Source: a virus
Taxonomy: Duplodnaviria > Heunggongvirae > Uroviricota > Caudoviricetes
Direction: 5' to 3' (one strand)
IMG/VR virus record: IMGVR_UViG_2778261631_000004
Length of the DNA: 37,064 nt
Every line of letters begins with the position of its first letter. Positions within the stretch are counted from its first letter, which is position 1. The notes under the pieces are model-generated. The model was not told where the DNA came from and made no database searches. It saw nothing but the letters and a program-made list of their open reading frames with translations. Position numbers and translations under genes: made by a program. Positions 3,165 through 35,616 of this stretch are shown here, piece after piece.

Positions 3165-4265
3165 TCATTCCATTTCGAAATCATCAATCCTCACTTCAAG
3201 CTCCAGACTGGTCGTAAAACCGTTATCCGGGCTGACAGTATGCGTCAGGGTGGTAATAGTCCATTCCGCATCATCTATCGGCTGTTTAAAGCCACTGACT
3301 TTCACTGGCATTTCCGTGTAGAGATCTGCCCGACCTTCTGCCAGTTGTAGCGAGAATGACGCAACACCGCGTTGCAGGCGTTCCCACTGCATTTTCGCTG
3401 CCCGTTCGGCGTTGCCCCGGTTGGCATAGGTGCGATTAAGTACCAGCACGTTTTCATCCGTACCCACCAGGTAATCGCCCTGCTTCGCTTCCGGCTCTTT
3501 CTTCTGCTTCTTAGTTCTGCGCTTACGCTTCACCGTGGTGCTTTCTTTCTTCGCAGGTTCGCGGGTATGCAACCAGCTGGCAATTACGCCCGTGTAGGCT
3601 CCGCGATCTGCCAGGGTAAAGCGGTGACTGTCGCCGTCCTTGCGTGTGATAGTGATCACTGGCAGTGGTTTACCAGTGGCGCTTTTGCCCTGCCCCTGCC
3701 GGATGAATAACAGATTGCCATTTTTCACCGACGCGATGGCACCGTACTGTCGCGCCAGCCGCATCAGAAAACTGCCGTCACTCTCATTAGTCTGGTCTAT
3801 ATGCTCCACGGGCTTATCCGACAGGTCTTTACCCAGTGCCATCTTCAGCTTGTGCCGCGCGGCTATTTCCTTCACCACTTCCCCGACAGTGGTCTTGTGC
3901 CACGATTTTTCACGGCGGGTATTCAGCGTTTCACGAAAATCAGCACTTCGCGCCCGGATAGTCAGGCGATCCGGTGCGCCAGTGTGTTCAATCTCGTCCA
4001 CCGTGAATGCCCCTTTCGGGAAAAGCGGCTGCCCCTTCCAGCCCAGCGCCAGCGTAATAACCGCACCACGACGCGGCAGCACGATTTTTCCGTCGGCGTC
4101 GTCCAGTTCCAGATCAAGCTGGTCCGCTTCAAAGCCCCGGTTATCCGTCAGCGTCAGACTCATCAGGCGGTTGTCCAGCACTGTGGTGATATCCCTGCCC
4201 TCAATACTGATGCTGAATGCGGGAGTTTTGTTGCCTTTGTTAAGCAGTTCAGAGCTGAAATTCAC
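3165..4265 (-). CDS. D: Tail protein D (late control protein D)
   Basis: 366-aa ORF at the end of the tail operon after U, matching P2 gpD in position and size. Confidence 0.85.
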   Translation of the reverse strand: MNFSSELLNKGNKTPAFSISIEGRDITTVLDNRLMSLTLTDNRGFEADQLDLELDDADGKIVLPRRGAVITLALGWKGQPLFPKGAFTVDEIEHTGAPDRLTIRARSADFRETLNTRREKSWHKTTVGEVVKEIAARHKLKMALGKDLSDKPVEHIDQTNESDGSFLMRLARQYGAIASVKNGNLLFIRQGQGKSATGKPLPVITITRKDGDSHRFTLADRGAYTGVIASWLHTREPAKKESTTVKRKRRTKKQKKEPEAKQGDYLVGTDENVLVLNRTYANRGNAERAAKMQWERLQRGVASFSLQLAEGRADLYTEMPVKVSGFKQPIDDAEWTITTLTHTVSPDNGFTTSLELEVRIDDFEME

Positions 4266-10144: not shown

Positions 10145-10711
10145 TCAGGGAGATTTATTGTTCTTATTTGCCGGAAATTTTCGATAAATGGTAGAAACGC
10201 CTACATCAAAAATCAGTGCAATACGCTGTCTTGATTCTCCGGCCTCGAGTAAACGCCCAATCTGTGCCCACTGTTCGCTGGTCAACTTAGGACGGCGTCC
10301 ACCTACTCTGCCTTTAGCACGAGCTGCAGCCAGCCCCGCCCTAGTACGTTCAACTATCAGTTCGCGTTCCATTTCAGCCAGGGCACCCATGACATGAAAA
10401 AAGAAACGGCCCATTGGGGTGCTGGTATCAATACTGTCAGTCAGGCTTCGGAAATTCACGCCACGCTGGCGCAGCTCTTCTATCAGCGTAACAAGATGCC
10501 GCATACTGCGCCCCAGTCTGTCCAGCTTCCAGACAACCAGCGTGTCTCCTGCCGATAGTGTCCTGAGCAGCTTTTTCAGCCCCGGTCTGTCGGACTTGGT
10601 GCCACTGATTTTATCCTCAAAAATCCGCTCACATCCCGCACAGTTCAGTGCATTGCGTTGCAAATCGGTGTTCTGGTCATTTGTTGACACGCGTACATAG
10701 CCAATAAGCAT
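10145..10711 (-). CDS. Serine-recombinase DNA invertase (Gin/Hin/Pin/Cin family)
   Basis: N-terminus MLIGYVRVSTNDQ with catalytic Ser, resolvase core and C-terminal HTH; very close to Gin/Hin. ORF track start is 2 codons upstream. Confidence 0.9.
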   Translation of the reverse strand: MLIGYVRVSTNDQNTDLQRNALNCAGCERIFEDKISGTKSDRPGLKKLLRTLSAGDTLVVWKLDRLGRSMRHLVTLIEELRQRGVNFRSLTDSIDTSTPMGRFFFHVMGALAEMERELIVERTRAGLAAARAKGRVGGRRPKLTSEQWAQIGRLLEAGESRQRIALIFDVGVSTIYRKFPANKNNKSP

Positions 10712-10738
10712 GATCATCCCCCTGAATAAAAACCGGAG

Positions 10739-11317
10739 ATGATGCCAGTTAGCCGTTATCTCTGCATTTTCATAAACGTTGGTTTAGGAGAAGGCTCTGC
10801 ATTACCGGTTGGGGTGCCTGTTCCGTGGCCTTCAGCCACTCCGCCAACAGGCTGGCTGAAATGCAATGGTGCGGCTTTTTCTGCTGAAGAATACCCGGAA
10901 CTGGCAAAGGCTTACCCGACCAATAAATTGCCTGATTTACGCGGTGAATTTATTCGTGGCTGGGATGATGGACGTGGAGTGGATGCGGGGCGAGCCTTGC
11001 TAAGTCTTCAGGATGACTCTTTTGAAGCTCACAGACATGAGTCCTTTTTTTACGCGGGTATTTCACGCAATGAAACACCATTAAAAAATCTTCCAAGTTC
11101 AGACGAGATGCTGACTTTAAGTTCCACAACTAATGCCTTGTCCCCGGACGGTATTGATGCCACCGATTCGTTAATTGGTAATGATGATTACAACTGTCTG
11201 ATTGAAGGAAATAAAAATAACAAACGAACGGCAACGGGGTTGAGTACCAGTATTGTCGGTGCAGCAGAGACACGCCCACGTAATATTTCATTTAATTACA
11301 TTGTGAGGGCTGCATGA
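10739..11317 (+). CDS. Alternative tail-fibre C-terminal segment (silent orientation, no own promoter/start expected)
   Basis: Shares the GLGE junction motif with H at the crossover site; would be fused to H after inversion. The N-terminal residues in the ORF track are read-through of the crossover region. Confidence 0.55.
   Translation: MMPVSRYLCIFINVGLGEGSALPVGVPVPWPSATPPTGWLKCNGAAFSAEEYPELAKAYPTNKLPDLRGEFIRGWDDGRGVDAGRALLSLQDDSFEAHRHESFFYAGISRNETPLKNLPSSDEMLTLSSTTNALSPDGIDATDSLIGNDDYNCLIEGNKNNKRTATGLSTSIVGAAETRPRNISFNYIVRAA
10781..10797. repeat. Left inverted-repeat crossover site
   Basis: TTGGTTTAGGAGAAGGC, 15 of 17 identical to the reverse complement of the copy inside gene H. Confidence 0.5.
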
Positions 11318-11922
11318 TGTATAACGCTATCTTAAATAATAAATTTATTGCCACAAAGGCAGGAGAGGTTACCGTTTATAACTATGACAGTGAGACACGG
11401 GAGTATATTTCTGCATCAATTGAATATCTTGCTGTGGGTGTCGGTATCCCCGCATATTCCTGTTTAGATGCTCCTGGCACACATAAGGCTGGTTATGCAA
11501 TCTGCCGTTCTGCAGATTTTAACTCATGGGAATATGTGCCAGACCATCGCGGTGAAATCGTCTTTAGCACCGAAACAGGAGAATCAAAAGAAATCACAGC
11601 TCCGGGTGATTACCCTGATAATACAACCACTATCGCCCCGTTAACACCATACGATAAATGGGATGGTGAGAAATGGGTGACGGATACCGATGCACAGCAT
11701 AGCGCCGCAGTAGATGCAGCAGAAGCACAACGCCAGTCGCTGATTGATACTGCAATGGCTTCCATCAGTCTGATTCAACTGAAATTACAGGCCGGACGGA
11801 ATCTGACGCAGGCAGAAACCAGCCGACTTAACACGGTGCTGGATTACATTGACGCGGTGACGGCAACAGATACCAGCACCGCGCCTGATATTATTTGGCC
11901 TGTATTCCCTGAGACTGATTAA
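11314..11922 (+). CDS. Tail-fibre assembly chaperone (alternative orientation)
   Basis: 202-aa ORF with typical Tfa C-terminus (TSTAPDIIWPVFPETD), overlapping the stop of the upstream fibre segment. Confidence 0.75.
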   Translation: MMYNAILNNKFIATKAGEVTVYNYDSETREYISASIEYLAVGVGIPAYSCLDAPGTHKAGYAICRSADFNSWEYVPDHRGEIVFSTETGESKEITAPGDYPDNTTTIAPLTPYDKWDGEKWVTDTDAQHSAAVDAAEAQRQSLIDTAMASISLIQLKLQAGRNLTQAETSRLNTVLDYIDAVTATDTSTAPDIIWPVFPETD

Positions 11923-12112
11923 CCTCAATTAGTATTGGTTCGCCTTTCTCATTAATTGTTAGCTCCATGCCCTGAGGAATTTCTGTCATAGTAAAAAACC
12001 AGTTGTCCTCCGGTAATTCAATAGCCCCGGTCACGTCATGAAGACCGGGGATTACTTCAGTCAAAGTAACTGGATTAAACAGGCGCACAATAAACCCTCC
12101 AGGAAAAAGCAT
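11891..12112 (-). CDS. Short ORF downstream of H, possible truncated or atypical fibre-assembly gene for the current orientation
   Basis: Occupies the position of gene G but is far shorter than typical Tfa proteins and lacks the Tfa C-terminal motif; overlaps the end of H in another frame. Confidence 0.25.
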   Translation of the reverse strand: MLFPGGFIVRLFNPVTLTEVIPGLHDVTGAIELPEDNWFFTMTEIPQGMELTINEKGEPILIEVNQSQGIQAK

Positions 12113-13466
12113 TTGATGATGGTCTGCCGTCGTACATCTGGCAGCGGGCATAAAAGCCGGTATTTGTTACCTGATCATCCACGATCATTGAAACGTGAAC
12201 ATTATTAGGTGTGCTCTCGTAATCTGTTCTTATTCTTTCCGCGATACTGATAAAACGTGAAAGTTTAGGCAGTGCAATTGGGTAAACAACTTTAGCCAGT
12301 CCATTATCATTAGATCCACCGGTTCCAAATACTTCTATTGCACCATCTGACCAGCGTATCCATGCACCATTGGCATTAGCTCCTCGCTGAATGATATATC
12401 TGGCTTCTCCCAAACCAAGGTATGTGAGAAGACCAGCTACATCCTTTCCACTCAAATTAGTCAGCGTATTGTCCAGCGGTTGTTTACCTGCCAGTGCATT
12501 AAGCATTGTCGTGGCAAAGTTCGGGTCATTCCCCAGCGCCGCCGCCAGTTCGTTCAGTGTATCCAGTGCCGCAGGTGCAGAACCCACCATTGCTGCAATC
12601 GCTGATTTCACAAAAGCTGTAGTGGCAATCTGTGTATTGTTGACCGACTGTGCCGCAGTAGGTGCTGTTGGCGTTCCGGTGAGTGCCGGACTCGACAGCG
12701 GTGCTTTTAGTGCCAGCGCATTGTTAATGGTGGTACTGAATTTCGGGTCATTGTTAATGGCTGCGGCAATTTCTTTCAGTGTGTCCAGCGTGGCTGGCGC
12801 ACCGTTAATCAGAGCAGTAATAGCGGCCTGAACAAACGCGGTGGTCGCAATCTGCGTGGTGTTATTCCCCTCCGCTGGCGTTGGCGCTTTGGGTGTTCCG
12901 GTCAATGTCGGGCTTTCTTTGGGTGCATACTGTGAATGCGGGTCCGGTGCGGCAAGATGTTTTGCCATCTTATCATCCACGAACACCTTCAGCTCCAGTA
13001 CCTTGTCATCCACATACTTGCGGGTTGCCAGCACGACGGCAGGGTCGATTTTCAGGGTGATATTGTCCGTGCTGCTGGTAATCAGCACCATGCGCACGGT
13101 CTGGGTGCGCCCGCTGCCTTCAGCCAGTTGCGGCTTATAGCTTTCCGGGCAGTTGCCTACGGCAATCAATGCCCCGGACTCATCAAACAGACCCACTTCA
13201 CGTATCCACCAACCACCCTCATTTTCAGGGATCACCTGTTCAGCAATAATCTGGCTGCTGTTCTGCGGGTCGATATAGAGCATATTCAGCGCAGCCCGGC
13301 GTTTCTCATTTACCAGTGCCGTCTGCTTTGCGTCCGGCGTCGGCAATGCTCCGCCGCCATCGCCCACCGCCATATGGGTAATTTTTAGCGGCACACCGAG
13401 CGCGGCGGCGCTGGCAAGTTTCGCCGCGCCAATATCCGTCAGCAGGGTATAAAATTTTGTGCTCAT
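12075..13466 (-). CDS. H: Tail fibre protein H
   Basis: 463-aa ORF with conserved N-terminus (MAVGDGGG) and two tandem about 70-aa repeats (TGTP...TQIATTAFV...LDTL...AAA.GNDP.F); C-terminus lies inside the invertible segment. Confidence 0.85.
   Translation of the reverse strand: MSTKFYTLLTDIGAAKLASAAALGVPLKITHMAVGDGGGALPTPDAKQTALVNEKRRAALNMLYIDPQNSSQIIAEQVIPENEGGWWIREVGLFDESGALIAVGNCPESYKPQLAEGSGRTQTVRMVLITSSTDNITLKIDPAVVLATRKYVDDKVLELKVFVDDKMAKHLAAPDPHSQYAPKESPTLTGTPKAPTPAEGNNTTQIATTAFVQAAITALINGAPATLDTLKEIAAAINNDPKFSTTINNALALKAPLSSPALTGTPTAPTAAQSVNNTQIATTAFVKSAIAAMVGSAPAALDTLNELAAALGNDPNFATTMLNALAGKQPLDNTLTNLSGKDVAGLLTYLGLGEARYIIQRGANANGAWIRWSDGAIEVFGTGGSNDNGLAKVVYPIALPKLSRFISIAERIRTDYESTPNNVHVSMIVDDQVTNTGFYARCQMYDGRPSSNAFSWRVYCAPV
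12403..12419. repeat. Right inverted-repeat crossover site (inside H)
   Basis: Reverse complement reads TTGGTTTGGGAGAAGCC and encodes the LGLGE motif of H. Confidence 0.5.
12492..12914. repeat. Intragenic tandem repeat (two about 210-bp units) within H
   Basis: Two consecutive near-identical peptide units in H; coordinates derived from residue positions, approximate. Confidence 0.5.
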
Positions 13467-21908: not shown

Positions 21909-23675
21909 ATGAACACCACACTGACACCCGCAGATCTCGATCCCCGTCGGCAGGCCATGCTGCTGTACTTTCAGGGATACCGCGTAGCCCGCATTGCTGA
22001 AATGCTGGGCGAGAAAGTTGCAACTGTTCACAGCTGGAAAAAACGCGACAAGTGGGGTGACTATGGGCCGCTGGATCAGATGCAGCTCACCACCGCCGCA
22101 CGCTACTGCCAGCTCATTATGAAGGAGCACAAAGAAGGGAAAGATTTCAAAGAGATTGACCTGCTGGCACGCCAGTCTGAGCGCCACGCACGGATCGGCA
22201 AGTTTAACAATGGCGGCAACGAAGCCGACTTAAACCCTAACGTCGCCAACCGCAATAAAGGCCCGCGCCGTCAGCCGGAAAAGAATGTTTTCACCGATGA
22301 ACAGATTGAGAAGCTGGAGGAAATCTTCCATTCCTCCATGTTCAACTACCAGCGCCACTGGTGGGAAGCCGGAAAAACCAATCGCATCCGCAACCTGCTG
22401 AAGTCTCGCCAGATCGGCGCGACCTTTTACTTTGCCCGTGAAGCCCTGATTGACGCCCTGCTGACCGGACGTAACCAGATTTTCCTTTCTGCCAGCAAGG
22501 CTCAGGCCCACGTCTTTAAACAGTACATCATCGACTTTGCCAAAGAAGTGGAGGTGGAGCTGAAAGGCGATCCGATGGTGCTTCCTAACGGGGCCACGCT
22601 TTACTTCCTCGGCACCAATGCCCGCACGGCCCAGAGTTACCACGGCAACCTGTATCTGGATGAGTATTTCTGGATACCGAAATTCCAGGAGCTGCGCAAA
22701 GTGGCTTCCGGTATGGCTATTCACAAAAAATGGCGACAAACCTATTTTTCCACGCCATCCAGTCTGACACACAGTGCTTATCCGTTCTGGTCCGGTGCGC
22801 TGTTCAACCGTGGGCGTAACAAAGCCGATAAGGTGGACATCGACCTGTCCCACAGCAATCTGGCCCCCGGCCTGCTGTGCGCAGACGGGCAATACCGCCA
22901 GATAGTCACCGTGGAAGATGCAGTACGCGGCGGATGTAACCTTTTCGACCTCGATCAGTTGCGCATGGAGTACAGCCCGGACGAATACCAGAACCTGCTA
23001 ATGTGCGAGTTTGTGGACGATCTCGCGTCCGTGTTTCCGCTCAGCGAGCTGCAGGCGTGCATGGTGGACAGTTGGGAAGTCTGGACCGACTTTCATGCAC
23101 TGGCTCTGCGCCCGTTTGGCTGGCGCGAAGTATGGATCGGTTATGACCCGGCGAAAGGTACGCAGAATGGCGACAGTGCCGGATGCGTGGTGGTGGCACC
23201 GCCAGCCGTGTCGGGCGGTAAGTTCCGCATTCTTGAGCGTCACCAGTGGCGCGGGATGGACTTCCGCGCCCAGGCTGACGCCATCAAAAAACTGACTGAA
23301 CAGTACAACGTGACATACATCGGTATCGACTCAACCGGCGTCGGTCACGGGGTTTACGAGAACGTGAAAGCGTTCTTTCCTGCCGTCCGGGAGTTTGTCT
23401 ACAACCCCAACGTTAAAAACGCCCTGGTACTCAAGGCCTACGACATTATCAGTCACCGTCGTCTGGAGTTTGACGCCGGACACACCGACATAGCGCAGTC
23501 ATTTATGGCAATCCGTCGCGCCACCACCGCCAGCGGCAACCGCCCGACCTATGAAGCCAGCCGCAGCGAAGAAGCCAGCCATGCGGATCTGGCATGGGCA
23601 ACAATGCACGCACTGTTTAACGAACCGCTGCAGGGCGAGTCCGCCAATACCAGCAATATTGTGGAGATTTTTTGA
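21909..23675 (+). CDS. P: Terminase large (ATPase) subunit P
   Basis: 588-aa ORF divergent from O, followed by Q with overlapping stop/start. Confidence 0.9.
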   Translation: MNTTLTPADLDPRRQAMLLYFQGYRVARIAEMLGEKVATVHSWKKRDKWGDYGPLDQMQLTTAARYCQLIMKEHKEGKDFKEIDLLARQSERHARIGKFNNGGNEADLNPNVANRNKGPRRQPEKNVFTDEQIEKLEEIFHSSMFNYQRHWWEAGKTNRIRNLLKSRQIGATFYFAREALIDALLTGRNQIFLSASKAQAHVFKQYIIDFAKEVEVELKGDPMVLPNGATLYFLGTNARTAQSYHGNLYLDEYFWIPKFQELRKVASGMAIHKKWRQTYFSTPSSLTHSAYPFWSGALFNRGRNKADKVDIDLSHSNLAPGLLCADGQYRQIVTVEDAVRGGCNLFDLDQLRMEYSPDEYQNLLMCEFVDDLASVFPLSELQACMVDSWEVWTDFHALALRPFGWREVWIGYDPAKGTQNGDSAGCVVVAPPAVSGGKFRILERHQWRGMDFRAQADAIKKLTEQYNVTYIGIDSTGVGHGVYENVKAFFPAVREFVYNPNVKNALVLKAYDIISHRRLEFDAGHTDIAQSFMAIRRATTASGNRPTYEASRSEEASHADLAWATMHALFNEPLQGESANTSNIVEIF

Positions 23676-24712
23676 TGGGAAAGAGTAAGAAAAACCGCGC
23701 TGCGGCGACGAATCAGCTCAAACATAAAGGCCAGACTACAGCCGAAGCATTCAGCTTTGGCGATCCCGTTCCTGTTCTGGACCGCCGTGAACTGCTGGAC
23801 TATGTGGAATGCGTACAGACAGATCGCTGGTATGAGCCGCCAGTGAGTTTTGACGGACTGGCACGAACATTCCGCGCCGCCGTACACCACAGTTCACCGA
23901 TTGCAGTGAAATGCAACATTCTGACCAGCACCTACATCCCTCACCCGCTGCTCAGCCAGCAGGCTTTTTCACGTTTTGTGCAGGACTATCTGGTATTTGG
24001 TAACGCCTACCTGGAGAAACGCACGAACCGGTTCGGTGAAGTTATCGCCCTTGAGCCTGCTCTGGCAAAATACACCCGACGCGGGTTAGACCTGGATACC
24101 TACTGGTTTGTGCAATACGGTATGACAACCCAGCCGTATCAGTTCACGAAAGGCAGCATTTTTCATCTGATGGAACCGGACATCAACCAGGAGATCTACG
24201 GCCTGCCCGGTTATCTTTCTGCCATTCCGTCAGCCCTGCTCAACGAGTCCGCCACGCTGTTCCGCCGCAAGTATTACATTAACGGTAGCCATGCAGGCTT
24301 CATCATGTATATGACCGATGCCGCGCAGAACCAGGAAGATGTGAACAACCTCCGCAACGCAATGAAAAGCGCCAAAGGCCCTGGCAACTTCCGCAATTTG
24401 TTTATGTACTCGCCTAACGGCAAAAAGGACGGGCTTCAGATCATCCCGTTGTCAGAAGTCGCGGCGAAGGATGAGTTTCTGAATATCAAAAATGTCAGTC
24501 GCGATGACATGATGGCAGCACATCGCGTTCCGCCACAGATGATGGGGATAATGCCTAATAATGTTGGGGGATTTGGGGATATAGAGAAGGCAAGCCGTGT
24601 CTTTGTACGTAATGAGTTAACGCCTCTACAACAAAGAATTAAAGAACTAAACGAATGGATAGGCGACCATGTCATGCAATTTATGAAATATACATTTGAC
24701 GATATAAACTAA
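23672..24712 (+). CDS. Q: Portal protein Q
   Basis: 346-aa ORF after P. Confidence 0.9.
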   Translation: MMGKSKKNRAAATNQLKHKGQTTAEAFSFGDPVPVLDRRELLDYVECVQTDRWYEPPVSFDGLARTFRAAVHHSSPIAVKCNILTSTYIPHPLLSQQAFSRFVQDYLVFGNAYLEKRTNRFGEVIALEPALAKYTRRGLDLDTYWFVQYGMTTQPYQFTKGSIFHLMEPDINQEIYGLPGYLSAIPSALLNESATLFRRKYYINGSHAGFIMYMTDAAQNQEDVNNLRNAMKSAKGPGNFRNLFMYSPNGKKDGLQIIPLSEVAAKDEFLNIKNVSRDDMMAAHRVPPQMMGIMPNNVGGFGDIEKASRVFVRNELTPLQQRIKELNEWIGDHVMQFMKYTFDDIN

Positions 24713-24759: not shown

Positions 24760-25455
24760 TTAAAATTTAGCAAGCTCCATATAAGAAATAGCATCATTAA
24801 AGACCGACACATGTTCTTCAGGAATTATTGCCGAGGCTCCACTAGTTAGTTCAAAGCTAAATTTAGAGTCATGATATAGCCCCCCAACTTTTATTTTATC
24901 GAGTTTAAAATCATTATCCAAAACAAATTTTTTCAAATCATTTAGAGCATCTCCACTAGAATTCAGCTCTAAACACGCCCTTGTTTTATCAGTAACAGGA
25001 ACATTTGAAACTTTCACCTTTGAGATGGCGAAAACTTTGACTCCAAACTCCTCCCTAATTATTTTCATAAAAGCCTTGAGATCTACCGTCAAGTTTCCAT
25101 AGGCAACATTTACCCCTTCACCTTTTGACAAGAAATCAATAAAAGACTTAACTGTCTTTGGAGGATTATAAAAAGTCAACAAACATAATTTATTACTTAA
25201 TGTTTGGATAGAAAAACCAATCTGTTCAAAAACAATCCTTTCGAACTCTAAAATATCACCAAATGGATCAGAAACTGGCTCCAACATTATAGTTTTTTTA
25301 TTAAAAGTCGCAGATATTCCATTGTGAATAGTTTCAAACTTAGTAAAACCAGCACCAATAGCATCAGAATAAGGGGTGTTTTTGATAAAATCAAAGATCG
25401 CTTCAGAACTGGTTCTGATCTTTAATCTCATCCACTTTAATCTTAACTGTGACAT
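24760..25455 (-). CDS. Hypothetical protein, cargo gene 3 of 3 (about 231 aa), no recognisable motif
   Basis: A+T-rich ORF; ATG with AAGGAG Shine-Dalgarno 5 nt upstream, 2 codons inside the ORF-track start; 14-nt gap from upstream gene. Confidence 0.6.
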   Translation of the reverse strand: MSQLRLKWMRLKIRTSSEAIFDFIKNTPYSDAIGAGFTKFETIHNGISATFNKKTIMLEPVSDPFGDILEFERIVFEQIGFSIQTLSNKLCLLTFYNPPKTVKSFIDFLSKGEGVNVAYGNLTVDLKAFMKIIREEFGVKVFAISKVKVSNVPVTDKTRACLELNSSGDALNDLKKFVLDNDFKLDKIKVGGLYHDSKFSFELTSGASAIIPEEHVSVFNDAISYMELAKF

Positions 25456-25474
25456 ATCCACTCCTTATGATGAA

Positions 25475-26539
25475 TTAGCTAATTTCCATTATAATAGAAT
25501 AAGCTCTATTTTCAATTAATTTATTAAATCTATCGGTTTCTCTAGCTGAAAGCTTTTGAGGTTTACTGAAATATTGACCGTTAGACTTATATTTTTTCAC
25601 TCCTTTTACTAAATATGAAAAATTAGTACAGTTTAGTGGATCTCCGAATTGAGCTTCGAGTTCATAAATATCTGGGTCTGCTAGTTTCTCTTTAACCTTC
25701 CATTTTATTTTCCAGATATAAAAGCCTCTATCATAAAGATCACTAAGTTCATCAGATTTAAGAACTCCCTCTCCTTTCAGAGATGCTTTTGACACATGAA
25801 CTCCAGTTTCAGTATTTCCCTCTTCTGCTTCTATTGTTTCAGGTTTTGGATGATATACATAAGCATCAGTAACATCGTCTAATTCATATCCATCTAGGCT
25901 ACGGATTAATTTATCGAAAAACAGTGTCCTAACATCTGCGGAGCTATTATGAGCAAGAGTAATTTCGTTTAATTTTAAATCAAGATTACTGTCATTATCT
26001 TGTTCACTCTGGATCGAAATTATATGCCCGAGGAGGAGATCTTCATAATCTTTGAGATTCTCGTTATCGGGACGACGGATGCTATAACCTTTATCAATAG
26101 GCTCGATTTCAATTAAAGCTTCTTTATTTACAGCCTGCTTAAAATCGCTTTTACTATAATTGGTCGATAGATATCTTATATCTATAAGAACTCGAGAACC
26201 ATCAATAATAATTTTACAATAATCATCCTGAGCAGTTATTTCTTTTTTTAACTTCTCTGCTGCCACTATGATATCGTCCTTAGTGACACTGGATTCAATT
26301 CTTACACATGTATTTTTTTCAGCTCTTGTCTGACCTCCGAGTAATGTTGCTATCTTCTGATGTTCATAATAATCATGAGTCATCCGAGAGTAGTTTCTGG
26401 CTAGATCTTTTCTAGGGGTTTTTTTACAAATAATAGTACCTCTTTCCAAGAAAAGATCTTGTATTTCATTTAATGTAATCTGCTTTTGATTCAAAGCATC
26501 ACATAAAGCCTTATCAGTTACACTATGAATATTTTTCAT
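25475..26539 (-). CDS. Hypothetical protein, cargo gene 2 of 3 (about 354 aa), no recognisable motif
   Basis: A+T-rich ORF; start ATG overlaps the stop of the upstream gene in an ATGA arrangement with a GGGAG Shine-Dalgarno; ORF-track start is 4 codons upstream. Confidence 0.65.
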   Translation of the reverse strand: MKNIHSVTDKALCDALNQKQITLNEIQDLFLERGTIICKKTPRKDLARNYSRMTHDYYEHQKIATLLGGQTRAEKNTCVRIESSVTKDDIIVAAEKLKKEITAQDDYCKIIIDGSRVLIDIRYLSTNYSKSDFKQAVNKEALIEIEPIDKGYSIRRPDNENLKDYEDLLLGHIISIQSEQDNDSNLDLKLNEITLAHNSSADVRTLFFDKLIRSLDGYELDDVTDAYVYHPKPETIEAEEGNTETGVHVSKASLKGEGVLKSDELSDLYDRGFYIWKIKWKVKEKLADPDIYELEAQFGDPLNCTNFSYLVKGVKKYKSNGQYFSKPQKLSARETDRFNKLIENRAYSIIMEIS

Positions 26540-27600
26540 TTCGGCTCCCAAGAAATAACCTCAGAAGAAAAGAATTCTTTTACAGTAGAGACAACTTTGA
26601 CATCCAGATCTTCAAGTCTCTTTTTAGCCTCTTCATCCAGTCCATACTCATGAACATACTTTTCGATCCCACGCTGAAAATGCGACATAACTCTATTATC
26701 TTTCTCACGATACGCCAATCTTATTCTAATTTTATTTATACCATCTAAAATTTGATAATTAGAAAGCAAGTCTAGCAAATAAAAGAATTCATTATCGCTA
26801 TTACCTTTTCTATTGTAATATATAACAAATCCCTCTGGATAAACCATTTCCTCAATACCTTTAGCCCTATTGAATTTATAAACAGGACCATGTTTAATAA
26901 TCATAAATGGTGATAACAAAACTTCAATAGTTGCAGGAAGGTATTTTTCAGTTACAGCAACCTTATGGAAAATAAGTTGAGGATAATAGAATCCATAATC
27001 CTCATCTGGAAATTCTTTTTTTGCAATCAAGTCATTCATATCATTCGTTACTGCCAACATATAATTAATAAGAAATGGATCAATTATATGAATTTGCTGA
27101 CCAGCACATAACGGAATCTTTTCTAAGTTTACAGCCTTATCTCTCCTTCCTTTAGTAGGTTTAGGAGGATTAAAGAAATCATAAAAATCATGTTGCAATT
27201 GATTATCATGATTAAAAACAAATAATAAACCTCGAACTTCGAAATCAATTTGAGAAAAGTTATATTTTTCTGACCATTCCTGGCTATATCGAGCACAATC
27301 AATTGTTTTTGCTAAAGACTCTAATGCAGATTCTATCTTTGTTGCATTAATAGAACCAGCCTTATAACTTTTCAAATCAGTATTTAAATAAATAATTTTA
27401 TTTAAATATGGATCTTTATAACTAAATACCACATCCACTGGGTGTGTGTGCTTTTGTTTTTTACCTTCAGGCTTATGTTTTGTTTCATTATCACAAGAGA
27501 AATCTTGGTCACAGGGGCCATGCTGTTGCCACTTAAAACGACTCATAAGATCGTTAGAAATGCGTTTTGCTAAGTCTTCAATAGGGCCATTCTCTGCCAT
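26536..27600 (-). CDS. Hypothetical protein, cargo gene 1 of 3 (354 aa), no recognisable motif
   Basis: A+T-rich ORF with AAGGA Shine-Dalgarno upstream of the ATG; no Walker A or other signature visible. Confidence 0.65.
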   Translation of the reverse strand: MAENGPIEDLAKRISNDLMSRFKWQQHGPCDQDFSCDNETKHKPEGKKQKHTHPVDVVFSYKDPYLNKIIYLNTDLKSYKAGSINATKIESALESLAKTIDCARYSQEWSEKYNFSQIDFEVRGLLFVFNHDNQLQHDFYDFFNPPKPTKGRRDKAVNLEKIPLCAGQQIHIIDPFLINYMLAVTNDMNDLIAKKEFPDEDYGFYYPQLIFHKVAVTEKYLPATIEVLLSPFMIIKHGPVYKFNRAKGIEEMVYPEGFVIYYNRKGNSDNEFFYLLDLLSNYQILDGINKIRIRLAYREKDNRVMSHFQRGIEKYVHEYGLDEEAKKRLEDLDVKVVSTVKEFFSSEVISWEPK

Positions 27601-27635
27601 TTCATTTCCTTACTTTTGCAGACAAATCTCATTGA

Positions 27636-27665
27636 AAGATAAAGGTAAGCTTTTTGCGTTGCAAG
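27636..27665 (-). promoter_or_regulatory. Candidate sigma-70 promoter of the cargo operon
   Basis: Minus-strand TTGCAA, 17-nt spacer, TATCTT about 40 to 60 nt upstream of the first cargo gene; by-eye match only. Confidence 0.3.
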
Positions 27666-27699
27666 AACTTTGGACTTGATGTGAGAAGCTTAACGCGCG

Positions 27700-27722
27700 C
27701 TCGTATCCCCGCCACGCCTGCC
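27700..27722. other. Candidate cos (cohesive-end) site
   Basis: Minus strand reads GGCGTGGCGGGGA, resembling the G-rich cohesive-end core I recall for P2/186; lies between the Q-side and A-side arms as expected. Confidence 0.45.
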
Positions 27723-27760
27723 CGCTTTATGTAGTGGTTTTCATGCACCTGCATGATCTA

Positions 27761-27787
27761 CGCAAAAGCCCGCCAGAACTGGCGGGC
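27761..27787 (-). terminator. Rho-independent terminator after the lipoprotein gene
   Basis: Stem GCCCGCCAG / CTGGCGGGC with 2-nt loop, followed on the minus strand by TTTTG. Confidence 0.45.
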
Positions 27788-27891
27788 CTTAACACAAAAG
27801 ATCCTCAAACGATCATGCGATCTCATGCAGCATAGACATGCGCGTTTATGCAGAATGTGCAAAATCGTAACATACTCAGTAAGCGTGAAAC

Positions 27892-28569
27892 CTAGAACGT
27901 GACAGCCTTGTCAAAGCCAGAAATAATTGTATAAGAAATAGACGAGTTATCAGCCTTGTTCACTTTGAACTTGGCACCTTTGTAAGCGATAACATCACTT
28001 CCCTTAGAATCTACAGAAAAATCTGTTGTAAATGCTGCACGAGCCATATCGTTTGCAAATTCACGATAGGTGAACTTCATTACACCGCCTGCATTTCCAT
28101 TGTATTCGATAGTCTTAACCAATGAATTACTCACTCGACACAGCCCATCAGGAACACGTTTGATAGAAATTTCTGATGCAGTATAAGAAGTGCCATTTGG
28201 CGGTGATATCTCATTTTTTGCAGCATCGTAACTAACATAATCAACATAGTTACCGATTTGCCCATAGAGATTTTTTAACGCAACAGCTTGAGGGTTATGA
28301 TAATTGCGGTAAATTCCATTCCCCTCACTGCAATATGTACCAGCAGCGATAGAAGACAATGCACCATTAGCCGCACCAAGTTCTAGTACGTCCGTTTTAA
28401 ATCCAGTAGCAGATGTGATAATGGGATCGCCCATGTAGGCGGTAGCACTTTGCCCAATAGCTGGCTTCACCACTTCAATAGCAGTGATATTTCGGTTAGA
28501 AGCATGTGGCACGCAACCAGTTAGGATTACAGCAAGAGATATTGGTAACGCTACATTATTAATTTTCAT
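27892..28569 (-). CDS. Predicted lipoprotein of unknown function (accessory/moron gene)
   Basis: Signal peptide ending in lipobox LTGC (MKINNVALPISLAVILTGC), Gly/Ser/Thr/Asn-rich mature part; start placed at internal Met; own terminator downstream. Confidence 0.65.
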   Translation of the reverse strand: MKINNVALPISLAVILTGCVPHASNRNITAIEVVKPAIGQSATAYMGDPIITSATGFKTDVLELGAANGALSSIAAGTYCSEGNGIYRNYHNPQAVALKNLYGQIGNYVDYVSYDAAKNEISPPNGTSYTASEISIKRVPDGLCRVSNSLVKTIEYNGNAGGVMKFTYREFANDMARAAFTTDFSVDSKGSDVIAYKGAKFKVNKADNSSISYTIISGFDKAVTF

Positions 28570-28682
28570 TTTTAGCCTATTATTCTTTTCTTGACAAAAA
28601 ACAAGGCGATATCTGATTGACATCGCCTCTCACTCATATGTAACCCTTTTTGATTAGTAAAAACAAGCGTCTATTGACAAAA

Positions 28683-28916
28683 TTAATGCAGCCAGCTGTC
28701 GTCTTCCCACACCTTCTGCAAAATTTTCATCACTTGTTTTCTTTCTTCGTCCAGTTGCAGTCCGGTCAGTTCCACACCGTTAGAGCTACCTTTACGGATA
28801 CGGATTACCGTTTTGGGATACAGGGGGCGCAGATTGCGGTAAAGCTCGGATTCAAGGGCGTCCAGGGTAGACTGGCTAATCTTCTGCTCTTTATCGATCA
28901 TTATTTCAATGCGCAT
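28683..28916 (-). CDS. DinI-family protein
   Basis: MRIEIMIDKEQ...LDALESEL...ILQKVWEDDSW closely parallels E. coli DinI; own GAGGTGA Shine-Dalgarno; ORF-track start is upstream of the likely Met. Confidence 0.8.
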   Translation of the reverse strand: MRIEIMIDKEQKISQSTLDALESELYRNLRPLYPKTVIRIRKGSSNGVELTGLQLDEERKQVMKILQKVWEDDSWLH

Positions 28917-28926
28917 AAAAGTCACC

Positions 28927-29114
28927 TCAACTGATGACATCCATTGAGCGGTTGTATTCGTGGGTTCTGATTTTTGCCATGAGTTCATCAGTCAATTCAG
29001 AAACCCACTGCAGAGCCAGCCCCTTCTCTTCATCACTACACTCACTAGCCGCTACAAGCTTAAGAAAAAAATCAATGCGCTGGAGCTTCAAAGACTCCAA
29101 AAAATAGTCCTGCA
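28927..29114 (-). CDS. Small protein (62 aa) co-transcribed with the DinI-like gene; possible Tum-like antirepressor component
   Basis: ATG preceded by GGAGGAAAG; the ORF-track N-terminal extension would overlap the LexA box, so the shorter start is preferred. Confidence 0.5.
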
Positions 29115-29157
29115 TCTTTCCTCCTATGACACCACAAGCAATACTGTATGCATAAAC

Positions 29158-29173
29158 ACTGTTTATATTTACA
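29158..29173. promoter_or_regulatory. LexA box (SOS operator)
   Basis: CTGTTTATATTTACAG, perfect CTGT-N8-ACAG, overlapping a TATAAT-like element; a second near-consensus box CTGTATGCATAAACAC lies immediately adjacent (29142..29157). Confidence 0.7.
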
Positions 29174-29268
29174 GTATATAATAATCTTACTGATGTAAAA
29201 CGTTTTTTTACGTTCATCAGCCTGATATGCCTGGTATTATTAAGAGCACGAATTGTTAACCCGCGTAA

Positions 29269-31710
29269 TTAATACAGGTTCCGCCACTTATCATCTTCCT
29301 GCAAACGCTGGTTCCGATAGAAGATACGCAGGCCTGCTCCTGACGGAATACTGCCACCGCGAAGGAGCAAATCGACCTCTTTCTCGCTGCCATCAAATCC
29401 TCTGGACTTCAGTTCATAGACGAGCTGCTGACGCTGATGCTCTGTAATTCGCTGTTTGTAGTCTTTACGCCGTTTCGGTTTAACCAGGCGTAATCTTGCT
29501 GCCAGTTCCCGGCGCTCTTTTTTGCTCATATTGTGCAGGTAATCGTGCAATTCCTTGTCATCCATGCAGGTAATATCAGTTCTGGTATCCCCATCTGCTG
29601 ATTTATCTTTCTCCTGTTGGTTCAAATTTTCAGCAAGGGGACAGTTATTGCCACGAGTCCAAGGGGCGCAAGCGCCCTGGTCGGCTGCCGCCTCCTGAAT
29701 GTCAACGGCCTTACGAACCATTTTCCACTTCACCGCATGAGTGCAGATCTTGCCCTCTGCAATGGGTGACCAGATGCCATAAATACGAATACCGTGATCG
29801 CCATAGGCGGTCGGCTCTTCGTTGATTTCATAAGCGGTTCTGATGAGGTGATATTTGCGGGGAACCAGTACGCCGCCCTGCTTCATGATGTAGGTGGCAA
29901 AACAGCCAGCATCAGCGGCAGCCAGGATGGCATCAAGGCGCGGGTTATCCAGTACCGGCGCACCTGCTTTTTTGTCCCCCTGTTGCCTTGCCGCCTGACC
30001 AGCCAGCAATCGCAGTTCACGGTAAGCCTGACGCCCCGGAATGCCAAAGAAGCGGAATTGCTGAACACGATGCAGAGACGCCCAGGCATTAACGTATTCG
30101 GCGTTATCACGCAGGGATTTACCCGTTTCCTTGCTGATCTCGCCAGCCAGACCACGCCCGTCAATGTTCTTACTGATGTATTTCGCGATGTAGCTTGTTG
30201 GCGTACCTTTGCGCGGGTTTATCAGCTCAGACTTAAAGCGTGGTTCCGTGTTATTACCCAGCTCCTCGCGGTCTTCACGAATGGCAAACTTACGCAACAA
30301 AGCAGTAATGGCGCGGCGATCTTTTTTGCGCATAAAACACAACAGGTGCCAGTGAACTGTACCGTCATGATGCGGCTCAGCCACCCGCACGCCATACCAG
30401 CGTAATCCGGCTTTGTGCATCGCCTTACGAAATGCAGCAAACATACCGACCAGATAATCACTGCTTTGTCTTACCGTCGCATTTGTCCAGGTCGGGTTGG
30501 GCCTGCCGTTATTTAGCGTGGAATGGAAACGTGACGGACAGGTGATGGTGTAGAAAACGGCGCAGTCACCACGCATTTCCGCGATAAGCTCCAGACCTTT
30601 AACACAGGCCATCATCTCATTGCGGCGATGCGCAGGGTTGCTGCTGCTGGCGTTTACCACGTCTTCCATATCCAGCGTGTCGCCGTCTTCGTTCACCAGT
30701 TCATGAGAACGGAAAAACTCCAGCGACTTACGGCGCTGCTCACGTTTATGCATCACGGCTTCATAGCTGACATAGGGAGATGCTTTTTTGCTGACCAGGC
30801 AAACAGCACGCAACTGCTCTTCCCGCCATTCGCAACGCATCTTCCATAATTTCCGATACCACCAGTCGGCGCATAACATACGCGCCAGCGAACCCGGAAT
30901 GAGTTCATAAGGCACGGGTTTACGGCGGTTTCTTTTCCGACGGAGTTGCTCAAACGCAGGCGGGATAACATCCAGACGCAGGGTTTCCGCTGCCACCTTT
31001 TCCCATGTCTTGCGGATTTCTTCTGGCGTAACATCATCGGTGGCATACAAATCGCCACAAGCTGTATCAAGGCACATGCTCATATGCGCAGCTACCAAGG
31101 TGGACAGGCGTTTCACCTGATCCTGACTCATTTCAGGCAGGATCAGCAGGCCGTCCAGCCCTTCATGGCTTGCCATAAAGCGAAAAGAAGTGGATAGCTG
31201 ACTGTCGCGTACATGCTCCAGTCGTTCCAAGCATGGCTTAATCGTCTCACGCAAATAGCGGGAATAAGCCTTTGGCCTGCCCAGGCTGCTGAAGTATTTA
31301 ATACGTTGCATCAGCGGCTTGCTGATATGGGAAGGCTGGGCGTTGACGTCCGCCAGAATGGCCATGTCTGGATTAAAACGCTGCTGCTCATGCGCCAGCT
31401 TTGCCCGGCTAATTAGCTTATCCTGCTCCATTTCGCGTTGGACAGGATCACGGGATTCATTAAAGAAATAACGCTCCCAGACCTGATCACTCAGTGCCTC
31501 GCGGCGCAGTTGTTCCTGCTCGTTATCGGCAGCGTACAGAGTGATCAGGTTTGAAAGCGCAGAAACCGGCGCAACTTCCGCCGGGTCCAGATAAGGGTTA
31601 ATGGCCTTTTTCGGGCTGTTCCATGAGAATGCTGCGGCGACCTCGTTAAAGCCGCTGCAGTTGTTCATATCAGCATGGCTCATGCACGCACTCCGTACAC
31701 GACGGAACAA
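29269..31710 (-). CDS. A: Replication initiation protein A (rolling-circle nickase)
   Basis: About 800-aa ORF in the early operon position of P2/186 gene A; true start may be an internal Met a few codons in. Confidence 0.85.
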
Positions 31711-32537
31711 TCCACGCCACGCGAAGGATCAAATCCTACCCAGCAGCGCGGCCCGGAAACAGCGATGATTTCTGTTGCAGATTTACTCTCACCAGCTGCC
31801 ACGCCGATGCTGCGTTTTGCCTTGATGTAGTGGTGAGTAAAATTGCGATACAGCGAACGGATCAGGGATGTGTCACTGTTAGAAACAATGACCGGATGAC
31901 CTTCAGATGATCGATGTTCAAGAACGGATGCCAGGTGATACTGGTCATCTTCAGTGAAGCCATCAGTGTGATAGCCGGAAAACGTACCGTCATAAGGCGG
32001 ATCGCAATACACCACATCCCCCGCCTTCAACATCGCCAGCGTTTCATCAAAGCTGGCGCAGATAAACGTTGCCCGCTGGGCTTTCTCTGCAAATGCGCGA
32101 ATTTCTTTTTCAGGGAAATACGGATTTTTATAATTACCGTAGGGAATGTTGAAATACCCGCTCTTGTTATAGCGACATAGCCCACGGTAACCATGACGAT
32201 TGAGATACAGAAAATATACCGCTTTCATGAAATCAGTAATTTCAGTGGAGTAATTAAACTCCTGCCTTATGTTGTAATAAGCCACCTCTCTGTTTGCTTC
32301 CTCAAATAAAGCTCTGGCACGAGATATAAACGTCTCACAATCAGCAGCAACCTTTTTATAGAGGTTGATTAAATCAGGATTAATATCCGCAACCAGATAG
32401 CTGGGGTAATCCGTCTCCATCATCACAGCACAAGAACCCGCGAAAGGTTCAACCAGTCGCGTGCCAGCAGGAAGGTATTTTTTCAGTTCGGACATAATGG
32501 TGGTTTTATTACCCGCCCATTTCAGGATGGTGCTCAT
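31680..32537 (-). CDS. Dam-family DNA adenine methyltransferase (predicted GATC specificity)
   Basis: [31 protein letters not shown] and CDPPY motifs, colinear with E. coli Dam; start placed at internal Met ([11 protein letters not shown]); 3' end overlaps the start of A. Confidence 0.9.
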
Positions 32538-32836
32538 ACAGCACCTCCTGCAATAACATATCCTAAAGCTTCTAATGGGGTTAATGAGCGAATTGATAGC
32601 ATCACCCATTGTTCTGAAACTGCCATGACGTCATTAACCGGAAGCACATGAGAGATAACCGCGGCCCATTCCCTACCCGTAAATACGCCATGCTTCCATT
32701 CGCAAAGAGAAAGAACATCACCAACTTTATAGCCACGATCGTCTTTACGAAGTTCAGCCGTCTTTTGACCTGCAACCACAGCGTTGAAATACTTAGGTGC
32801 AATTTTTAATTGATGGATACGCACAGCCCCTGTCAT
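32534..32836 (-). CDS. ASCH/DUF3850-like small protein
   Basis: About 100-aa ORF ([34 protein letters not shown]...) typical of phage early regions; ORF track start is a non-ATG codon upstream. Confidence 0.55.
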
Positions 32837-34959: not shown

Positions 34960-35616
34960 GTGAAGGCTCCAAAAGAACACTTCTGGTTCAACTTTAAGAT
35001 CGCTTTTGGAATCTGTCAACGAATTTTGGATTTCTTTGGAGGACTTGTGGATTTCAATAGCGGCGGTAAGAAAGCCATAGAACGTTTAGTTGAAGCATAT
35101 GGGTTCGGTACTCGTCAGGCTCTCTGTGATCATTTAGGTGTTTCTAAGAGCACCATGGCAACGCGCTATATGCGTGATATTTTTCCAGCAGATTGGGTAA
35201 TCCAGTGCGCCCTTGAAACGGGCACCTCGCTTAATTGGCTAACAACAGGGCATGGTTCAAAGCAAGCATCAGCAAATACAAATACTATAGAAGTAGAAAA
35301 ATATTTATTGTCTGATGGAGCATTGCAGAAAGACGGTTTTTATATTTTTGATAAGGGATTTCTACCCTCTACGTTTAAAAAACCTTTTGTCATCACAGAT
35401 AACAATTCTGAATTTATTTGTGATAAAGAATTTGATGATATACGTGATGGTAAATGGGTAATAAGTATTGATGGCGAAATAACGATCCGTGACATTACTC
35501 GTTTACCCGGTGGAAGAATCTTCGTCGAGGGTGGAAACAGAGCCTTCGAATGCAAGATAGAAGACATTGAAATAATTGGTAAAATTATAAGTTTGACAGT
35601 CAAGTATGTTAAATAG
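34960..35616 (+). CDS. cI: CI-type immunity repressor (186 CI-like)
   Basis: N-terminal domain EAYGF...CALETG.SLNWL.TG as in 186 CI. ORF track starts at GTG 34960; a GTG at about 35047 preceded by GGAGGA is an alternative start giving a 189-aa product. Confidence 0.75.
   Translation: MKAPKEHFWFNFKIAFGICQRILDFFGGLVDFNSGGKKAIERLVEAYGFGTRQALCDHLGVSKSTMATRYMRDIFPADWVIQCALETGTSLNWLTTGHGSKQASANTNTIEVEKYLLSDGALQKDGFYIFDKGFLPSTFKKPFVITDNNSEFICDKEFDDIRDGKWVISIDGEITIRDITRLPGGRIFVEGGNRAFECKIEDIEIIGKIISLTVKYVK

Follow-up and report, generated by a model that had tools for sequence, protein, structure and literature searches.

Cell-surface lipoproteins of prophages are the least explored layer of phage-phage competition, and only a few small ones, such as Llp of T5 and Cor of phi80, N15 and HK022, are understood. 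Llp and Cor, which comprise about 60-80 residues in mature form, are outer-membrane lipoproteins that block receptors in superinfection exclusion and are dispensable for growth of the phages encoding them, and their genes lie near tail or receptor-binding genes. TraT of the F plasmid and Bor/Iss of lambda are likewise outer-membrane lipoproteins carried as accessory cargo of a mobile element, with roles in surface exclusion or serum resistance. In P2, old and tin occupy the slot in the right arm that lies to the replication-gene side of cos; they encode a cytoplasmic ATPase-nuclease (Old) and a protein that targets the single-strand-binding protein of T-even phages (Tin). Here we analyze a gene that occupies this same slot in a P2-like prophage, located at 27892..28569 on the minus strand of a 37,064-nucleotide stretch of DNA (IMG/VR record IMGVR_UViG_2778261631_000004; hereafter the window, meaning the whole stretch), and encoding a 225-residue prolipoprotein. 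An earlier note on this DNA had read the gene as a lipoprotein moron that might act in superinfection exclusion or lysogenic conversion.

The product resembles Llp and Cor in being a phage-encoded lipoprotein, predicted here to reside in the outer membrane, and in being dispensable for phage growth; in siphovirus-type phages the genes for its relatives also belong to the tail module, which parallels the position of cor and llp. It differs from Llp and Cor in sequence, with no similarity, in predicted fold and in size, as its mature form of 207 residues is about three times as long as either. Moreover, the gene in the P2-like phage is not linked to receptor-binding genes. TraT is similar to it in size, and neither the window lipoprotein nor 64 diverse relatives have a Pfam match to TraT or Bor. 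It has no homology to Old or Tin and, unlike these, it is exported. The nearest described counterparts are three catalog entries without a function, namely P2-hotspot system #44, phrog_1353 and STM2726 of Fels-2, which are the same protein in the same position between dinI and cos. A further full-length homologue with a lipobox, about 28% identical, is found at the end of aryl-polyene-type clusters of Oxalobacteraceae, where it is uncharacterized and has a chromosomal biosynthetic context rather than a phage one.

We hold with high confidence that the gene is an optional cargo of ~840 bp in the cos-proximal hotspot of P2-like phages, and that its product is exported by the Sec/signal peptidase II route, very probably resides in the outer membrane and belongs to no characterized family. 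It has already been catalogued and never studied; it is neither a member of the Llp/Cor family nor a textbook moron composed of promoter, gene and terminator.

A lipoprotein gene in an optional cassette beside cos

The open reading frame extends over 27892..28623 (-) and, from a start at 28569 that a weak Shine-Dalgarno sequence precedes, yields a 225-residue protein with the N-terminus MKINNVALPISLAVILTGC followed by VPH. The same product is annotated by PGAP in E. coli ATCC 8739 (WP_000700647.1), and the start methionine at 28569 is common to most homologues. A 243-residue reading from the ATG at 28623, used in the old Fels-2 annotation, was rejected, as this start lies inside a terminator hairpin and is given no support by homologues.

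Codons 1-18 (28516..28569, -) encode a signal peptide that ends in the lipobox L16-T17-G18-C19 (28513-28524, -). PROSITE rule PS51257 describes such a signal peptide as one with a basic n-region and a terminal lipobox [LVI][ASTVI][GAS]C whose Cys falls at positions 15-35, and the window protein accordingly presents K2, an uncharged h-region, the stretch I-L-T-G-C and Cys19. A signal peptidase II site is thus present by this rule, in agreement with the signal peptide and LTGC lipobox that the earlier note had described. The same features occur in 20 of 22 homologues, with the two exceptions looking like mis-called starts; G18 and C19 are invariant in the homologue alignment, and C19 is kept in at least 90% of a 65-sequence alignment. 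A strict lipobox is found in 135 of 164 full-length family members, none of which (0/135) carries Asp at +2. Residues +2 to +4 of the window protein, V-P-H, likewise include no Asp, and given this absence at +2, sorting of the lipoprotein to the outer membrane is expected. The mature protein (207 residues, 22 kDa, pI 7.8) contains two further invariant cysteines, C80 and C144. As had been noted previously, it is rich in Gly, Ser, Thr and Asn, which together account for 32.9% of residues, yet this is enrichment and not low complexity.

The open reading frame is clearly a real gene under strong constraint, as dN/dS between orthologues is 0.05-0.08 in unsaturated comparisons (dS 0.23-1.05). The idea that it is a hitch-hiking or decaying gene without current function, or no real gene at all, draws on the lack of a convincing promoter of its own and on its annotation everywhere as a hypothetical protein. 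This idea is hardly tenable: it is contradicted by the low dN/dS, which holds over dS up to ~1, by the invariant lipobox, by a frame that is intact in more than 50 viral contigs and by a confident fold prediction that rests on co-variation in the alignment. A structural role in the virion is very unlikely because the protein carries a signal peptide, although some relatives lie inside tail modules. No structural match was found in Pfam, PHROGs or BFVD, and in the P2-like phage the morphogenetic operons do not include the gene.

The gene order gpA, tumA, dinI, lipoprotein, cos, Hp1-3, Q places the gene between A and Q, beside cos. Three statements of the earlier note about this position hold up. 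First, the gene lies between the SOS module, which ends with dinI (28683-28916), and cos (27700-27718). Second, its slot is the one in which P2 carries tin and old, on the replication-gene (A) side of cos and within the hotspot that Rousset et al. (2022) describe between gpA and gpQ. Third, it is no part of the P2/186 core set. Close relatives may have or lack it, its boundaries are sharp and its GC content deviates. The gene is carried by an accessory cassette of ~840 bp (~27843..28682, -). In Escherichia phage 500465-1 and Klebsiella phage Kp4845-2, whose flanks are identical, ~100 bp of unrelated sequence takes the place of the cassette. The right boundary of the cassette coincides exactly with the dinI stop codon, and the other flank is identical up to ~27842. 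The GC content of the cassette region is 0.39-0.42 (40%) versus 0.52-0.57 (~53%) in core genes.

Two hairpins flank the gene. The upstream one belongs to the cassette and separates dinI from the start of the lipoprotein gene; with the T-run that follows, it resembles an intrinsic terminator (28593..28629, hairpin 28629-28603, -; stem of 11 bp, -16.6 kcal/mol, z -3.8). About 100 nt past the stop codon, a GC-rich hairpin, GGCCCGCCAG-UUCU-CUGGCGGGCU, is followed by UUUUGCG (27762..27792, -; -23.6 kcal/mol). This downstream hairpin is also found in relatives that lack the lipoprotein gene; hence it belongs to the conserved phage backbone and is the backbone terminator of the right-end operon. A scan of 27550-29300 against Rfam found no RNA family. 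The terminator that had been assigned to the gene as its own is therefore a backbone element, and the terminator that does belong to the cassette lies upstream. The designation of the gene as a moron, in the sense of Juhala and Hendrix, stands only in part: it is borne out by the presence/absence polymorphism and the deviating GC content, no convincing promoter of its own was found, and the downstream terminator is not its own.

Some 45 nt beyond the GC-rich hairpin lies the cos cohesive-end sequence, GGCGTGGCGGGGATACGAG (27718->27700, -). This stretch is conserved in all relatives, whose sequences diverge immediately past it; the record end of Salmonella phage SEN8 maps to 27700-27718, and the stretch matches the P2/P4 cos core in Table S2A of Rousset et al. 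(PMC9122126). In virion DNA, the right arm thus has the lipoprotein gene as its last.

Probable expression past the SOS operon

On its other side, the cassette adjoins an operon preceded by a LexA box (CTGT-N8-ACAG) at 29159..29174 (-), the sole exact match in the window, which overlaps promoter-like TTTACA...TATACT ahead of tumA. A small tumA-like gene (28927..29115, -; 62 residues, phrog_698) comes first in the operon, and second is a dinI/tumB-like gene (28683..28916, -; 77 residues, PF06183 with E 9e-23, phrog_189) that is annotated as TumB-like in Fels-2. This division into tumA and a DinI-like tumB behind a perfect LexA box (28683-29217) is like that of PsP3 and Fels-2; phage 186 has a single Tum protein.

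A search for sigma-70 promoters upstream of the lipoprotein gene returned none that was convincing; the only candidate, TTGTCA-18-AAAAAT, was rejected, as it ends inside the start codon. In a published microarray of Salmonella TA100 (Fels-2+), the mutagen MX raised expression of the predicted operon STM2726-STM2727-STM2728 by 2.6 to 14.8-fold, with p <= 0.01 for each of its three genes (PMC2225428). This result cannot distinguish read-through from a rise in prophage copy number, and the fold change of each gene is not stated. Prophage amplification after induction could be an alternative cause. Together, the anatomy of the locus and the microarray suggest that the lipoprotein is expressed by terminator-attenuated read-through from the LexA-controlled promoter, with the upstream hairpin probably attenuating transcription from the tum promoter. 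Because the gene comes last, past LexA-controlled tumA-dinI, with a hairpin in between and no convincing promoter, read-through would probably yield little of its product in the lysogen and more of it once DNA is damaged. For the related prophage BTP5, no prophage transcript in the lysogen is expressed more highly than tum (PMC7067206).

The cassette does not have the same upstream region in all relatives. The hairpin is kept in an 88%-identical orthologue (L053), with a compensatory change from C:G to T:A, and in 79%-identical orthologues (L055 and L057, ~3900-4000) its place is taken by a promoter-like TTGATG-17-TATGAT. Alleles of the cassette may thus be wired differently, through either read-through or a promoter of their own.

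These features bear on whether the lipoprotein helps the phage's own induced lytic cycle, being made when the SOS response fires and either stopping superinfection or loss of progeny on debris, like T5 Llp, or tuning envelope disruption at lysis. Such a role would be in keeping with a gene appended to the LexA/tum induction operon, with its co-induction by DNA damage in Fels-2 and with a Mu-like prophage in which the homologue lies directly upstream of holin and transglycosylase genes. We nonetheless consider it distinctly unlikely, as most P2-like phages with the same backbone lack the gene and can therefore dispense with it, a terminator separates the gene from the SOS operon, and 79%-identical orthologues have a promoter-like sequence instead of this terminator, which suggests expression independent of SOS. 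Furthermore, P2-type phages adsorb to lipopolysaccharide, which could hardly be masked by a lipoprotein on the periplasmic face.

Family, fold and candidate functions

The lipoprotein matches phrog_1353, a family of unknown function, over its full length in a hidden Markov model search (E 3.1e-105, with residues 1-223 aligned to all 230 profile positions), and it is 99% identical to Fels-2 STM2726. Rousset et al. list it in Table S5B as P2-hotspot system #44, with 84 occurrences, no Pfam domain and 'signal peptide: yes' (PMC9122126); their representative differs from the window protein by few residues. All database names for it are 'hypothetical protein' or 'lipoprotein'. Literature searches found STM2726 in the microarray study alone (PMC2225428) and nothing specific on exclusion by prophage lipoproteins in P2-like phages. 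Scans of the lipoprotein gave nothing in Pfam at E <= 1, no match in NCBIfam and no family at E <= 0.1 in PADLOC-DB v2, where three neighboring genes match Hp1, Hp2 and Hp3; in PHROGs, the only match besides phrog_1353 was one family of unknown function at E 0.04. A Pfam scan of 65 diverse relatives returned stray single matches and no family domain.

A profile search of 1.84 billion cluster representatives, with clusters defined at 50% identity, retrieved 2434 proteins at E <= 1e-3 (hence more than 2400 family clusters) and 1256 at E <= 1e-10. Nearly all are 210-240 residues long and match over their full length; most have a lipobox and a few have ordinary signal peptides. AlphaFold2, run on the deeper alignment, returned an all-beta model of 17 strands (predicted local distance difference test score, pLDDT, 91.0; predicted template modeling score, pTM, 0.77) in which residues 1-27 are flexible. 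In the 22-kDa product, residues 20-30 are predicted to form a short tether, which is joined to a compact all-beta domain of ~190 residues. When the PDB was searched by sequence, neither profile had a match below E 0.3; Foldseek returned no BFVD structure at E <= 1e-3, and no counterpart of the predicted fold was found among solved structures. The modeled fold therefore appears unmatched among the solved and viral structures with which it was compared, and given this and the lack of a sequence relative in the PDB, no function can be transferred by homology.

Relatives at greater distance occur in other kinds of prophage. Homologues that are 55-57% identical reside in prophages with large serine recombinases, near genes for OLD-family nucleases; one of these loci (L006) also has a lambda-type terminase. 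Among the siphovirus-type and Mu-like prophage loci examined (L076-L079, L003, L004 and L084), homologues with 24-31% identity adjoin tape-measure genes in siphovirus-type prophages of Providencia and Klebsiella aerogenes and in Acinetobacter phage Ab1656-2. Moraxella phage Mcat28 has an equally distant homologue (24-31%) within its tail-gene region, where no tape-measure gene is annotated. Annotated neighbors in these accessory slots include HicAB, Arc/Mnt, an antirepressor, AAA_15, toxin-antitoxin-like morons and DUF4258/HTH modules. These contexts point to independent capture of the family by at least five phage types, with at least four prophage types besides the P2-like one, and the family as a whole is one of general envelope lipoproteins that temperate phages have captured many times.

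One distant branch is chromosomal. It aligns over its full length with the phage proteins (hhalign probability 99.3%, 205 columns, identity ~28%), retains the lipobox and lies in aryl-polyene-type clusters at the same position in 4/4 examined members (Massilia, Rugamonas and two metagenome lineages). The gene order there is MMPL, DUF3261, ketosynthase, ApeP-like, ketoreductase, ketosynthase, family gene and phosphopantetheinyl transferase, with LolA_3 ahead of MMPL in L081, the sole cluster in which that end was captured; at each of the cluster loci L080, L081 and L085-L089 the family gene is found at 6001/7001. The aryl-polyene cluster of E. coli CFT073 (L090) contains no family member, and the E. 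coli aryl-polyene lipoprotein ApeA was considered as a family member and rejected as unrelated. Aryl-polyene lipids reach the outer membrane via Lol-like proteins (PMC8253772). The fixed position of all four distant-branch members, their full-length homology and this export route would fit a lipid-binding or lipid-handling protein of the outer membrane. Binding a lipid, or placing it in that membrane, would then be the basic activity of the family, and the phage copy would remodel the outer membrane as a possible route to exclusion or fitness. The link between the family and outer-membrane lipid handling is a lead, no more, and as an account of the phage protein we think it improbable.

A protein 99-100% identical to the window lipoprotein is present in 28 phage records, namely P2-like prophages of Klebsiella sequence types (ST) ST11, ST258, ST512 and ST437, 4LV2017, KP12, Fels-2 and RE-2010. 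Among 5426 complete E. coli genomes, the gene is found in 50 and the flanking backbone in 1277, and a scan of genome contigs returned a single locus. The arrangement gpA-tumA-dinI-lipoprotein-cos is found in 54 of 58 viral contigs (L018-L075). Across these contigs, the tumA-dinI-lipoprotein block is 97-100% identical, far in excess of gpA (83-99%) and the portal gene Q (72-94%), and P2-like phages may therefore exchange the block by recombination. Between cos and Q, the contigs have differing cargo and a spacing of ~0.2 kb to more than 3.5 kb. In more divergent P2-like phages, the same slot holds the 88%- and 79%-identical versions, so the association of the lipoprotein with this slot is old, and the slot is separate in behavior from the highly variable Q side of cos.

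This distribution could also reflect a lysogenic-conversion or fitness factor that benefits the host independently of phages, like lambda Bor/Iss or TraT; possible roles include complement or serum resistance, envelope stability under stress, adhesion and biofilm formation. Carriage of an identical protein by prophages of clinical Klebsiella (the four sequence types above) and by the Salmonella prophages Fels-2 and RE-2010 fits such a factor, purifying selection and cross-genus identity would suit a host-directed function, and the hotspot is known for virulence cargo too. Set against this are the absence of a Bor or TraT match in Pfam and the fact that the gene is also common in environmental and commensal strains, among them ATCC 8739 and wastewater and soil isolates. 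We regard a fitness factor as somewhat unlikely.

The reading we favor, tentatively and by analogy, is that the lipoprotein may act in envelope-level exclusion of other phages or envelope-targeting agents, a role that is possible though short of probable. It most likely acts at the cell envelope, where the lysogen or the induced cell would profit from it. By the proposed mechanism, it would bind a conserved component of the outer membrane or periplasm, such that other phages or envelope-targeting agents could no longer adsorb or deliver DNA; exclusion would then be Llp-, Cor- or TraT-like in function and carried out by an unrelated protein. We rank this first because of the content of the hotspot, the defense-rich neighborhoods in which independently captured copies lie and the precedents set by Llp, Cor and TraT. 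Also in its favor are the conserved lipoprotein signal, the behavior of the cassette as cargo, the low dN/dS, the Hp1-3 genes across cos and the LexA box ahead of tumA together with the damage induction in Fels-2. Anti-phage systems abound in the gpA-gpQ hotspot of P2 (Rousset et al. 2022, PMC9122126), and 99-100% identity across prophages of E. coli, Salmonella and Klebsiella fits a target conserved in Enterobacteriaceae.

Several observations weigh against exclusion, in addition to the ambiguity of the microarray described above. Strong purifying selection and near-identity across genera are unusual for exclusion proteins in an arms race. The lipoprotein showed no homology to Llp, Cor, TraT or Bor, or to a PADLOC model, in searches of Pfam, PHROGs, PADLOC and NCBIfam, with 65 relatives included in the Pfam search. 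The aryl-polyene branch points to lipid handling, not receptor blocking. The lipoprotein is absent from the tables of defense-tested systems of Rousset et al. (S2A and S2B), and P2-like hotspots also hold cargo unrelated to defense, such as partition systems and cytolethal distending toxin (PMC9122126). An extension of the exclusion reading, which we consider unlikely, would make the lipoprotein the founding example of a new class of envelope protection: a new-fold family of more than 2400 clusters, without a Pfam model, that at least five unrelated temperate-phage lineages have captured repeatedly and that is wired to SOS/tum in P2-like phages. It would bind a conserved component or lipid of the outer membrane and so close the envelope to incoming phages, colicins or tailocins when neighboring cells are induced.

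The lipoprotein is common: ~1% of complete E. coli genomes have it, as do Salmonella Fels-2 and prophages from epidemic clones of Klebsiella. It is encoded by a single, highly constrained gene of 0.7 kb that is easy to clone, and it represents a large family without annotation or structural precedent. Should the gene prove to confer a phenotype, a family of thousands of proteins would gain a name, the choice of phages for therapy against Klebsiella and E. coli lysogens would be affected, and it would become apparent whether the replication-gene side of cos is an SOS-coupled cargo slot of its own. The absence of a phenotype would be a reminder that hotspot cargo is not all defense.

Prophage setting and neighboring genes

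Directly past cos on the portal (Q) side, 290 bp from the lipoprotein gene, lies a separate system of three genes, Hp1, Hp2 and Hp3 (24760..27600, -; PADLOC E 1e-64, 2e-39 and 1e-10), with a GC content of 0.29-0.36. In NCBIfam, Hp1 further matches GapS4a below threshold (E 4e-10). Rousset et al. describe a three-gene P2-hotspot system without domains that protects against P1 (PMC9122126), and the Hp1-3 genes are taken to be this system. None of the 58 lipoprotein-bearing viral contigs contains Hp1-3, which makes the combination in the window unusual.

The prophage is P2-like, of the 186/Fels-2 type, and resides in E. coli: many E. coli genomes match the flank ybjM-ybjL-rybB at 99.9% identity, which identifies the window as a segment of the E. 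coli chromosome. Its other recognizable genes include tail hub gpD (3165-4265), the terminase (21909-23675), portal Q (23672-24712), replication gene A (gpA, 29269-31710), a 186-type CI repressor (34960-35616) and the integrase (from 35856). A gene for a Dam-type methylase, a D12-class adenine methyltransferase (31680-32609, -), overlaps the start of replication gene A, as it does in Fels-2 (STM2730).

The tail fiber genes occupy ~10.1-13.5 kb together with a gene for a Hin/Gin-type DNA invertase (10145-10717, -; Resolvase and HTH_7). The tail-fiber gene (12075-13466, -) is opposite in orientation to the tail-collar (10739-11317, +) and tail-fiber-assembly (11314-11922, +) genes, and the invertase gene adjoins them; 10145-13466 looks like an invertible host-range segment. 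At the prophage boundary itself lies the gene for the small RNA RybB (2700-2778, +; Rfam, 105 bits), with an ogr-like gene beside it, and the phage appears to have integrated at or beside rybB.

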